A DNA stretch of 64,000 nt from Escherichia phage F13, in sequence record OP745617; one strand, written 5' to 3'. Below, piece after piece: positions 51,748-53,420 of the stretch. The stretch's first letter is position 1. Each line of letters starts with the position of its first letter. Position numbers and translations under genes: made by a program. The notes under the pieces were generated by a model. It was not told the origin of the DNA. It saw only the letters and a program-made list of their open reading frames with translations, and did no database searches.

Positions 51748-52620
51748 CTATTTATTGAAATTAATATTATGGGTGTTTACAAGACGTTCACACATGGCGC
51801 TATAAACACCATCGTCGTGTATTGAGTCTTCGTGCTTCAGGCCGCTGATTGCGAAGCGTGTAAGCTTGACAATCTTAAGCTCGAACAGATGCCACATGTG
51901 GTAGTCTTCCGGCGTTTTCAACGTTACGCCATTAGGGAAAAGCACCTGCATAACCTGACCTACCATCACAGCGTTATCGCCATAGACAGCGTTGCGCTCA
52001 CGGAAGGTCGCTGCCATTGCATCAAGAATATCGGCGGCAGTTGCCGGAGATTGTTCAACTTCCACAGCCTTAGTCTCTTCTTGCCCTGTTGCGCTTGGAT
52101 CAATTGCTAATTGTTGCACCACTTCACCTGCTTTGCAAAGATTAAATGTAAAAGCGATTTTATTTTGAGCAACGGAGTTATAATACAATGCTTCATCTTG
52201 CATCCGCGCGAGTACGTCTTGTCGGTCGTCGAATACATTGATGATTCGATAATCGCCGTGCCGCAAAGCGTGCGATAGCCATGCAGATTTCATAATAGTT
52301 GATGGACGTTTGTCGCCATAGTCTCTCATCTTGATTGTAAATTCATCAAAAGGGAAAACATTGTCCAGACGTTCAAAAGTCACTTGTCTGTATTTTTCTG
52401 GCCTTGCAGTCCAATATTCAACCGCCTCACCGCGAAGAGATGCCGACTCTACTGCTGATGCAATGTGAGGATAGAACTGATCATAACCAATACCGCTGTG
52501 ATAGTCATCATAGTCTGACAACGGACCTGCCACCTTGATGCGGTCTAAGCGCCAACGGTCATCAAACAGAGTTCCGTCAAGGTCGAATACGTTTAAGATT
52601 TGGTTATTTTTGATACTCAT
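51748..52620 (-). CDS. HAD-superfamily phosphatase with uncharacterised C-terminal domain
   Basis: Motif I FDLDGTLFDD near the N-terminus; 290 aa; ATGA coupling with the ThyX-like gene. Confidence 0.6.
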   Translation of the reverse strand: MSIKNNQILNVFDLDGTLFDDRWRLDRIKVAGPLSDYDDYHSGIGYDQFYPHIASAVESASLRGEAVEYWTARPEKYRQVTFERLDNVFPFDEFTIKMRDYGDKRPSTIMKSAWLSHALRHGDYRIINVFDDRQDVLARMQDEALYYNSVAQNKIAFTFNLCKAGEVVQQLAIDPSATGQEETKAVEVEQSPATAADILDAMAATFRERNAVYGDNAVMVGQVMQVLFPNGVTLKTPEDYHMWHLFELKIVKLTRFAISGLKHEDSIHDDGVYSAMCERLVNTHNINFNK

Positions 52621-53420
52621 CCTTTTGATACTCCATCTTTGGCAACCGGATTATTGGTGATTGGCATCGCATCCCAAAACTGGATGCGCAACTCTTCTTG
52701 CTGTGCAGTGGTATCCATCCAATCACGATACCAAGGGCAATGGGCCTTGCCATGGCGAGGGAATGCGCACTTGCCCATACCGATGCATTGCGGCTGTAGT
52801 AAAGGATTAGCCCACGGGTGCACCTTGAGGACTTCCGCTACCATCGCACGGAAAACTTCCTGATACTCGCCTTGAGTACGCGTGCACAAGCGGTTAGAGG
52901 CCATTTGTTGTAGAGTGCGCAAGTTGAACTTTGCCATGATATGCGTTTGCATATTAGAAGGCAACACGGCACGTGCATCTTGAATCTCTGCGCCAGCCGC
53001 GCGAAGTTCTTGGTATAGGGCGTCAATGGTTGCCATTGCATCATCCCATTTCTCTGCCAGTTCAGCAGCCTTCTCGTCATGACGAGTCCATCCCTTTGGA
53101 TCATCCTCTGGGTAAGTGAATTTGGCAGGACGAATCGCATCAAACGCTGACGACTCCTGAGCGCGGCTTGTTCGTTCTTGATATGCACCTGTTCGTGTGC
53201 GCACCATCTGATGAGTCATATTCTTTGATACATCAGTGATGTCAAAGATATAGTCAACAAAGTCGAAAGGTGACTTTATGGTGTCAAGCATGTAGCGCCA
53301 GTGCTCTTGCTTCTCTGATTCTGTCATCTCAGAGACTGGCTTACCAGCCATGCGCGTATTCTTTGTTTCCAGCAGAAGGTCAAGTGCATCTTGGGTGTAT
53401 CGAATTAATTCAACTTTCAT
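52617..53420 (-). CDS. ThyX-like protein with non-canonical motif and Cys/His-rich C-terminal tail
   Basis: YIFDITDVSKNMTHQMVRTRTGAYQERTSRAQ parallels the ThyX core (…GVSR…QxVRHRxxSYxQxSxRY) but has RTR for RHR; tail CIGMGKCAFPRHGKAHCPW. Confidence 0.5.
   Translation of the reverse strand: MKVELIRYTQDALDLLLETKNTRMAGKPVSEMTESEKQEHWRYMLDTIKSPFDFVDYIFDITDVSKNMTHQMVRTRTGAYQERTSRAQESSAFDAIRPAKFTYPEDDPKGWTRHDEKAAELAEKWDDAMATIDALYQELRAAGAEIQDARAVLPSNMQTHIMAKFNLRTLQQMASNRLCTRTQGEYQEVFRAMVAEVLKVHPWANPLLQPQCIGMGKCAFPRHGKAHCPWYRDWMDTTAQQEELRIQFWDAMPITNNPVAKDGVSKG

Follow-up and report, generated by a model that had tools for sequence, protein, structure and literature searches.

The 64,000-nucleotide stretch of Escherichia phage F13 DNA analysed here (sequence record OP745617; this whole stretch is called the window) carries on its minus strand, at 52617..53420, the gene of a ThyX-like flavoprotein of 267 amino acids (aa), in which residues 1-203 make up a ThyX fold and residues 204-267 a C-terminal extension. 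The gene starts with ATG, with an AGGA Shine-Dalgarno-like sequence upstream, and is labelled in GenBank as "thymidylate synthase" or "putative FAD-dependent thymidylate synthase" (FAD, flavin adenine dinucleotide). The sequence of the region matches Escherichia phage vB_EcoM_SP13 at 100% identity and other Wifcevirus genomes at 95-97%; Wifcevirus is distant kin of the Pseudomonas PB1-like phages (Pbunaviruses). The protein appears to represent a distinct phage subfamily, in which His53, His79 and Tyr91 of ThyX have been lost while the residues that hold deoxyuridine monophosphate (dUMP) and the phosphates of FAD have been kept.

Family and fold

The ThyX-like protein matches Pfam Thy1 (PF02511) with E=1.4e-30 and 106.9 bits (cut-off 24.8), its residues 5-203 aligning to profile positions 2-191 of 191, and it also matches phrog_85. 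The AlphaFold2 (AF2) model has a mean predicted local distance difference test score (pLDDT) of 85. Both by sequence (HMMER) and by fold, the nearest PDB entry is T. maritima ThyX (TM0449, PDB 1O26), with a Foldseek E-value of ~4e-11 and a template modelling (TM) score of 0.72 normalised to the target, and the top 50 Foldseek matches in the PDB are all ThyX (E~1e-10). An exhaustive HMMER search returned 1622 family representatives at E<=1e-3. The protein has the ThyX fold and belongs to the ThyX family, the identity that the original prediction, made before any database search, had assigned to it. Against the NCBIfam thyX equivalog TIGR02170, it scores 83.0 bits, which is under the cut-off of 87.9. 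Some of the homologues (P0158, P0167) are interrupted by inteins (Pfam Intein_splicing), inserted ahead of the RxR motif region.

Active-site residues

The residue register was taken from the HMMER alignment to T. maritima ThyX, with native numbering obtained via known mutants in PDB chains. In this register, the core NMTHQMVRTRTGAYQERTSRAQ (residues 67-88; 53157..53222) contains R74-T75-R76 (53193..53201, minus strand) as the equivalent of the RHR motif R78-H79-R80, invariant in close homologues, and T84-S85-R86-A87 (53160..53171, minus strand) as the equivalent of the active-site loop S88-G89-R90-Y91, with the tyrosine lost. I48 (53277..53279, minus strand) takes the place of His53, which stacks on folate or flavin. 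The substitutions relative to T. maritima are therefore T75 for H79, T84 for S88, A87 for Y91, I48 for H53 and R181 for H178 (H79T, S88T, Y91A, H53I and H178R); retained are R74 (R78), R76 (R80), R86 (R90), Q71 (Q75), R150 (R147), N166 (N163), R168 (R165) and R177 (R174). What the phage protein shares with the T. maritima enzyme is the fold, the family hidden Markov model (HMM) and the arginines and glutamine that bind dUMP and FAD; besides the substitutions, it differs by a 64-residue extension with four cysteines and by linkage to a UDP-galactopyranose mutase (UGM)-like gene. The original prediction had placed the RTR motif and the replacements of Ser88 by Thr and Tyr91 by Ala by eye, and had named an alignment showing preserved catalytic residues as what would overturn it. 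The alignment agrees with the by-eye register and finds the canonical residues not preserved; the changes of His53 to Ile and His178 to Arg had been absent from that account.

These changes are shared widely. RTRTGAYQ is invariant across 42 homologues with identity down to ~58%, which makes sequencing noise an unlikely cause. An alignment of 26 homologues (27-60% identity) has just 12 invariant columns, comprising four Cys, four Arg that bind substrate or cofactor (R74, R86, R150 and R177) and others. When the 150 best representatives were aligned to the family HMM, 128 covered the core, and the residue between the two arginines was T in 66, H in 32, Q in 13, S in 8 and N in 6. Position 48 is I, L or V across the phage clade.

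The RHR motif forms hydrogen bonds to the FAD phosphates and the ribityl chain (PMC6514825). Because the replacements observed at its middle position are all hydrogen-bond donors, RTR is probably conservative for FAD binding, and the change of Ser88 to Thr is conservative too. RTR was considered as a unique, diagnostic feature and rejected, since T, H, Q, S and N all occur among the 128 representatives; by itself it is no sign of new chemistry. Further, the signature RHRx7S (Myllykallio 2002, as cited in PMC2826268) is not matched by the phage protein, which has RTRx7T, and is an unreliable filter for the ThyX family.

The losses at positions 53 and 91 are of another kind. Tyr91, a general acid, and Ser88 of ThyX have been called "strictly conserved" and critical; when Y91 of the T. 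maritima enzyme is mutated, flavin oxidation during methylation becomes 1000-fold slower, and His53 is stacked on folate or reduced flavin and hydrogen-bonded to Tyr91 (PMC11940539). The phage protein has Ala87 and Ile48 at these positions, and its sub-cut-off TIGR02170 score is consistent with the joint loss of His53 and Tyr91. The entire set that binds dUMP and the FAD phosphates (R78, R80, R90, R147, R165, R174 and Q75) is kept. Read from the residues, the dUMP-holding side of the active site appears intact and the side of carbon donation and flavin turnover rebuilt.

The protein could nonetheless be an ordinary flavin-dependent thymidylate synthase that makes deoxythymidine monophosphate (dTMP) from dUMP, methylenetetrahydrofolate (CH2-THF) and a reductant for the fast replication of the phage, with clade-specific folate positioning or activation of the flavin carbinolamine; we regard this as quite possible, if short of an even chance. 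The strong Thy1 match, a score only 5 bits short of the thyX equivalog cut-off and the conservation of all dUMP- and FAD-binding arginines speak for it, and the retained uracil-contacting R86 and R177 argue for dUMP as the substrate. Inteins usually sit in functionally essential enzymes, and their presence in some homologues points the same way. The absence of Tyr91 and His53, shown to be critical by mutagenesis in T. maritima ThyX (PMC11940539), speaks against it.

Linkage to a UGM-like gene

The ThyX-like gene has two partners on the same strand. Upstream, at 53946..54941 (minus strand), lies the gene of a 331-aa flavoprotein (phrog_4828) with an N-terminal GxGxxG motif and a fold like that of UGM and amine oxidases. 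Downstream, at 51748..52620 (minus strand), lies a fusion of a HAD/PNKP-type phosphatase (residues 1-180; PF25109 HAD_PNKP, E=5e-8; phrog_4889) with a C-domain of ~100 aa, and the ThyX stop and HAD start codons overlap as ATGA at 52617-52620. The term module is used here for a UGM-like gene, a ThyX-like gene and a HAD phosphatase with C-domain, in this order on the same strand, which is the arrangement found in the window.

Searches of Pfam, NCBIfam and PDB sequences with the UGM-like protein, profile-sequence searches included, gave nothing significant. Its AF2 model (pLDDT 86.6) has UGM as the best Foldseek match (4dsg and 3uka; E 4e-10, TM 0.66 normalised to the query). The likeness to UGM lies in these structural matches and in the GxGxxG motif of FAD-binding type; the phage protein is 60-180 residues shorter than UGM and has no significant sequence similarity to it. 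It has 1910 homologues in the protein database, nearly always annotated as hypothetical, and its gene is found in no fewer than 392 IMG/VR stretches and in 361 sequenced phages.

IMG/VR was scanned with a diverse UGM-like alignment and the best 80 loci were kept (38-98% identity; contigs of 4.6 to 73 kb). A ThyX-like open reading frame (ORF) stands downstream of the UGM-like gene on the same strand in 76 of these 80 contigs, and the other four stop 167-1850 nt past the UGM-like gene. In about 30 pairs the two genes are at most 25 nt apart or overlap. HAD-like ORFs are present at 70 and C-domain-like ORFs at 71 of the 80 loci. Among the 76 module-linked ThyX-like proteins, the residue at the His53 position is I in 75 and L in one, that at the His79 position is T in 61 and S in 15, and that at the Tyr91 position is V in 54, A in 19 and T in 3, so that the canonical residue never occurs at any of these positions. 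The equivalents of R74, R76, R86, R150, R168, R177 and Q71 are kept in 75-76 of the 76.

Similar linkage is seen in sequenced phages. PB1 and F8 carry the UGM-like (41% identity), ThyX-like (49%) and HAD fusion genes (ORF065, ORF059 and ORF057 in F8; the ThyX-like protein of PB1 is gp61), and the F8 orthologue of the ThyX-like protein, also at 49% identity, has both RTR and the four cysteines. By host genus, the counts of ThyX-like and UGM-like proteins in sequenced phages match (Pseudomonas 292/292, Escherichia 26/26, Serratia 9/9), and no actinophage, Clostridium or Bacillus phage is among the UGM-like matches in the sequenced-phage database. The pair also occurs in a 40-kb Vibrio podovirus, in a 206-kb Rhizobium jumbo phage and in five unrelated metagenome contigs, two of whose ThyX-like proteins have RHR. 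Outside Pbunavirus and Wifcevirus, the two genes often have zero gap or overlapping codons. No solid case of a UGM-ThyX fusion emerged when such fusions were sought: homologues of unusual length contain inteins or unrelated extensions, and one apparent chimera (P0208) is probably an artefact.

Were the enzyme an ordinary thymidylate synthase, the UGM-like neighbour would either be unrelated to it and adjacent through synteny, or serve as a redox partner holding the ThyX flavin in its reduced state. The canonical ThyX proteins examined (L5 gp48 and a Clostridium phage enzyme) have no UGM-like neighbour, and every informative UGM-like locus carries the present ThyX subtype; both observations count against that explanation. 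Mycobacteriophage L5 gp48 resembles the F13 protein as a phage ThyX encoded in a replication and nucleotide-metabolism region. It differs in keeping GHE...RHRx7SxRY, in having neither the four-cysteine unit nor the UGM-like neighbour, and in adjoining ribonucleotide reductase. L5 gp48 is reported to be enzymatically active.

The four-cysteine unit and the C-terminal extension

The C-terminal extension (residues 204-267; 52620..52811, minus strand) starts past the end of the Pfam match at residue 203 and has a conserved FW...NPVAKDGKS tail; searched alone against Pfam, it matches no family even at E<=10. The whole protein has exactly four cysteines, all invariant. The first, C179 (52884..52886, minus strand), lies two residues past the dUMP-binding R177, the equivalent of T. 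maritima R174. The other three, C212-x5-C218-x9-C228 (52737..52787, minus strand), lie in the tail CIGMGKCAFPRHGKAHCPW (residues 212-230; 52731..52787), and some relatives have a variable insertion between C218 and C228. The spacing of this Cys4 unit is C-x32-C-x5-C-x5-9-C; in some proteins, those of PB1 and F8 included, a long insertion precedes the last Cys. The C-x5-C spacing occurs in 69 representatives. The four cysteines come and go together: among the 128 representatives, at least three tail Cys are present in 73 of 74 proteins with Cys179 and in 0 of 54 without it (Fisher p=1e-35), the single exception being a truncated fragment.

The original prediction had noted a Cys/His-rich tail that could bind a metal. 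The extension and its invariant cysteines are real, yet the unit includes C179, and there is no conservation of the tail histidines His223 and His227. C179 and the tail cysteines very likely form a metal site, as suggested by four invariant, co-varying Cys and by an AF2 model that is confident over the tail Cys region (pLDDT 90-94). The site is predicted to be structural, with zinc likelier than Fe-S; it would stabilise the C-terminal extension against the R177 helix and would not be essential to the chemistry. If the enzyme were an ordinary thymidylate synthase, Cys4 would likewise be structural zinc. The Cys4 region is not covered by any solved ThyX, none of which extends past profile position 201, and no description of a four-cysteine metal module on this large phage ThyX branch was found in solved structures or the searchable literature. 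PDB matches to the RAF cysteine-rich domain (E~1) were set aside as compositional noise.

The Cys4 unit is also found alongside canonical active sites. ThyX of Clostridium phage phiCP26F has a canonical site (RHR...SxRY and His53) together with a Cys following the counterpart of R174 and three more towards the C-terminus, and several family representatives likewise combine Cys4 with RHR...SxRY. Cys4 is therefore accessory and not the cause of the active-site change. The middle residue of RxR is H in 31, T in 21, Q in 13 and S in 5 of the proteins with Cys4, and T in 45, N in 5, S in 3 and H in 1 of those without it; the RxR variant and the Cys4 unit vary independently. Further, Cys4 is present in 26 of the 76 module-linked homologues and missing from 50, and its absence from two thirds of them makes a central part in the chemistry unlikely. 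The idea that a Cys/His tail drives new chemistry was rejected on these grounds, together with the lack of conserved histidines.

Other genes of the neighbourhood

Between the UGM-like and ThyX-like genes lies a 148-aa ORF (53434..53880, minus strand) with a hydrophobic, signal-peptide-like N-terminus and no Pfam or PHROG match. Its membership in the module is doubtful, and it looks like a lineage-specific spacer, elsewhere replaced by another small gene or by none. The C-domain of the HAD fusion (residues ~195-290) has no Pfam match even at E<=10. The domain also occurs at L013:6314-6649 and L016:12720-12950. In other phages, as at L013, it stands alone directly after the HAD gene, and in Rhizobium phage RHph_Y65 a protein labelled 'phosphoheptose isomerase' ends in it.

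Downstream of the HAD fusion are two frequent members of the module, an SDR (FabG-like) protein (50999..51682, minus strand; PF00106, E=4.5e-31) and a VOC/glyoxalase-fold protein (50351..50902, minus strand) with a weak Glyoxalase_4 match (E=0.0025). Homologues of the SDR protein occur at 45 and of the VOC-fold protein at 42 of the 80 module loci, and neither is among the annotated genes of the corresponding region, from the ThyX-like gene to the DNA polymerase, in PB1 or F8. Next in order are the genes for a DnaQ-like exonuclease and a DnaE polymerase. In Vibrio phage VA-RY-3, a sulfotransferase-family protein is encoded two genes downstream of the ThyX-like gene (L003:5369-6124), in the stretch that matches the HAD, SDR and VOC-fold genes of the window, and this hints at a different tailoring chemistry.

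A search of the window for ThyA (tblastn with an E. coli ThyA sequence) found no homologue (best E-value 0.47), and the annotation of phage WFC contains no ThyA either. Apart from the ThyX-like protein, no enzyme able to put carbon on the C5 of uracil can be recognised in these genomes. As the sole thymidylate synthase-like gene in the genome, standing beside the DNA polymerase, its gene has a setting that favours an ordinary synthase.

Other genes of the region include a 281-aa Lys/Ala/Glu-rich low-complexity protein (55075..55920, minus strand), named 'TolA protein' in some relatives; a long plus-strand antisense ORF is an apparent by-product of repetitive composition. A 197-aa ORF (41949..42542, minus strand) lies where phage WFC annotates a MazG-like nucleotide pyrophosphatase, and it could shape the deoxynucleoside triphosphate (dNTP) pool beside the ThyX-like module. 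A dATP/dGTP-PPHyd/MazG-like gene is near the module at another locus (L013) too.

Thymidine hypermodification in related phages

In the DNA of the Pbunaviruses F8 and 14-1, about a quarter of the T is replaced by thymidine derivatives of 362 and 390 Da in TG context, which the authors read as derivatives of a tetrose sugar alcohol and of a circularised aldopentose, respectively (2025 END-nuclease preprint, PMC12191111). According to the preprint, this family had escaped notice for want of homologues of known modification genes; neither ThyX nor thymidylate is mentioned there (PMC12191111). In the searchable literature, no paper was found that connects ThyX with hypermodification of the Pbunavirus type. 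By mass arithmetic, 362 and 390 Da correspond to 5-hydroxymethyldeoxyuridine (hmdU) plus tetritol or pentose, minus water; the same masses fit equally deoxyuridine (dU) plus pentose by reductive alkylation (362.3) and dU plus hexose minus water (390.3).

Wifceviruses have a published resistance to five restriction-modification systems and a high sensitivity to EcoP1_I. The window contains 90 AGACC sites; AGACC, the EcoP1_I site, contains no TG/CA dinucleotide, which fits the sensitivity to this system. EcoRI does not restrict Wifceviruses in vivo, despite 36 sites in Bas98. Because EcoRI, which has no TG in its site, fails to restrict them, the modified motif in Wifcevirus may differ from the TG motif of F8.

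Enzymes of two other kinds help to place the ThyX-like protein. The ThyA-family dUMP hydroxymethylases of phages SPO1, phiW-14, ViI and M6 are encoded by genes that were first annotated as thymidylate synthases (Lee et al., PMC8989533). The likeness lies in the addition of a one-carbon unit at C5 of dUMP as the entry to hypermodification, which for the phage ThyX-like protein is a putative role. The ThyA-family enzymes differ in having an unrelated fold and a mechanism with a cysteine nucleophile and no flavin, and no ThyA-type enzyme of the known pathway, to which a 5-HMUDK kinase and post-replicative tailoring enzymes also belong (Lee et al. 2018 and 2021), was found here. PolB (PDB 4P5A), the C5-methylase of UMP in polyoxin synthesis, is a weak sequence match (E=5e-4, family profile) and a precedent for the ThyX fold in a secondary pathway with altered substrate specificity, although its reaction is still a reductive methylation and it has no Cys4 unit. 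PolB differs from ThyX by extra loops and is not known to have lost the His and Tyr residues. Separately, the structural database BFVD holds a match (A0A127AWA5) in Bacillus phage SP-15, a 413-aa ThyX-fold 'thymidylate synthetase'. The DNA of SP-15 carries 5-(4',5'-dihydroxypentyl)uracil, and this phage could be another ThyX-type link to C5 hypermodification.

Proposed role and alternative explanations

We propose that the ThyX-like enzyme is an installer of carbon at C5 that uses FAD and dUMP and feeds thymidine hypermodification, and that supplying dTMP is not its task, or not its only one. The probability of this reading is put at about 45%. A catalytically competent enzyme of ThyX fold, dependent on FAD, would bind dUMP and add a carbon substituent at C5 of uracil. 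As in ThyX, N5 of the reduced flavin would carry the methylene from CH2-THF to dUMP, and the exocyclic-methylene intermediate would be captured by water or an alcohol to give a product of the 5-hydroxymethyl-dUMP type, instead of being reduced to dTMP. The ThyX-like enzyme would then be the first enzyme of a module making the sugar-derivatised thymidine found in Pbunavirus DNA, in which provision and tailoring of the sugar would fall to the UGM-like, HAD, SDR and VOC-fold proteins; the SDR and VOC-fold proteins may be the source of lineage differences in the sugar moiety. Mishanina and colleagues reportedly trapped 5-hydroxymethyl-dUMP by acid quench of the ThyX reaction in 2012, and for this reason the proposed side-reaction appears chemically accessible. 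The analysis demonstrates the fold, the pattern of residues, the co-variation of the four cysteines, the linkage of the genes and the lack of a ThyA gene; that the protein binds FAD and dUMP, which product it makes, that it is tied to hypermodification and that Wifcevirus itself has hypermodified DNA are what we infer.

The original prediction had suggested an altered substrate or chemistry. Altered chemistry is plausible, but not for the reasons given then, as RTR, Thr84 and the Cys tail offer no basis for it; the pointers are the loss of His53 and Tyr91, the sub-cut-off equivalog score and the linkage to a UGM-like gene in a lineage with hypermodified thymidine. An ordinary thymidylate synthase would leave the origin of both the hypermodified T of Pbunaviruses and the restriction resistance of Wifceviruses unexplained.

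Several points weigh against the proposed role. The confinement to TG implies a sequence-specific step at the DNA level, which could start from thymine in DNA and need no special precursor. About 75% of the T in F8 is ordinary T, so a plain supply of dTMP would be useful too, and this, like the dispensability of a special precursor for TG specificity, is in keeping with an ordinary synthase. The location of the gene in a replication module by DnaE and DnaQ is typical of real phage thymidylate synthases. Alongside the same gene pair, the Rhizobium jumbo phage encodes dUTPase and ribonucleotide reductase, the usual companions of a genuine synthase, and the occurrence of this very large subfamily (the 1622 representatives at E<=1e-3) also in phages with these two enzymes is what an ordinary synthase would predict. 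Many of the loci have a DnaE/DnaQ replication module in common, and much of the linkage between the UGM-like and ThyX-like genes may reflect descent of this one large module and not function. For the UGM-like protein, amine-oxidase-type flavoproteins score almost as well as UGM in Foldseek, and what its model establishes is the fold class only. Hypermodification in Wifcevirus is suggested by analogy with its Pbunavirus relatives, and the evidence in those relatives is a preprint with provisional structure assignments (PMC12191111).

The pairing of two flavoproteins allows a bolder variant. Together, the ThyX-like and UGM-like enzymes could constitute a flavin-N5-iminium pathway that places a sugar-derived chain, or a hydroxymethyl group that is then glycosylated, onto C5 of dUMP, which we consider unlikely. 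In its strictest form, a flavin-N5-sugar iminium formed with the UGM-like enzyme would itself alkylate C5 of dUMP and yield a C-C-linked polyhydroxyalkyl- or C-glycosyl-dU nucleotide. The flavin-N5-sugar iminium is the hallmark of UGM, and the invariable partner of the ThyX-like protein has a UGM fold. Such a reaction would fit the conserved dUMP acceptor site beside replaced residues for the folate donor (His53) and the carbinolamine (Tyr91), the frequent SDR and VOC-fold proteins of the module, and the 362.3 and 390.3 masses, which agree with dU-sugar formulas as exactly as with hmdU ethers. It is, however, pure speculation about mechanism, for which there is no precedent; specificity for TG cannot come about on free nucleotides, and the phage polymerase would have to accept a bulky dNTP; in addition, the preprint reads the bases as thymidine derivatives with a tetrose alcohol or a pentose (PMC12191111). 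We hold direct sugar transfer to be highly improbable.

The TG specificity of the Pbunavirus modification (PMC12191111) would fit a flavin-dependent modifier of uracil or thymine that acts on DNA in TG context, with Cys4 as an Fe-S or Zn DNA-binding element. The loss of the canonical catalytic residues would suit such an enzyme, and equally a non-catalytic protein of ThyX fold. Cys4 clusters are common in DNA-processing enzymes, and yet two thirds of the module-linked homologues do without the Cys4 extension. The ThyX active site is buried at the tetramer interface, and none of the arginines clamping a mononucleotide's 5'-phosphate has been lost, which argues against an action on DNA. Strong purifying selection on active-site residues argues against a non-catalytic protein. 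Taken with both of its versions, this explanation is the least probable of those considered.

Implications

Should the flavin-N5-iminium pathway prove true, it would open a flavin-dependent (ThyX-type) route into thymidine hypermodification, the first of its kind. The module would then be common among phages that infect Gram-negative bacteria, and both the hypermodified T of Pbunaviruses and the restriction resistance of Wifceviruses would be explained. If its product is 5-hydroxymethyl-dUMP or another dUMP substituted at C5, the ThyX-like enzyme would be the first counterpart of the ThyA-type hydroxymethylases to work with flavin, and hundreds of "thyX" annotations in phages and viromes would be misassigned. 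Pbunaviruses rank with the Pseudomonas phages most widely employed in therapy. For their hypermodified thymidine, and probably also for that of Wifcevirus, the module offers a concrete, testable set of candidate genes, centred on a ThyX subtype that is now labelled "thymidylate synthase" in public databases.

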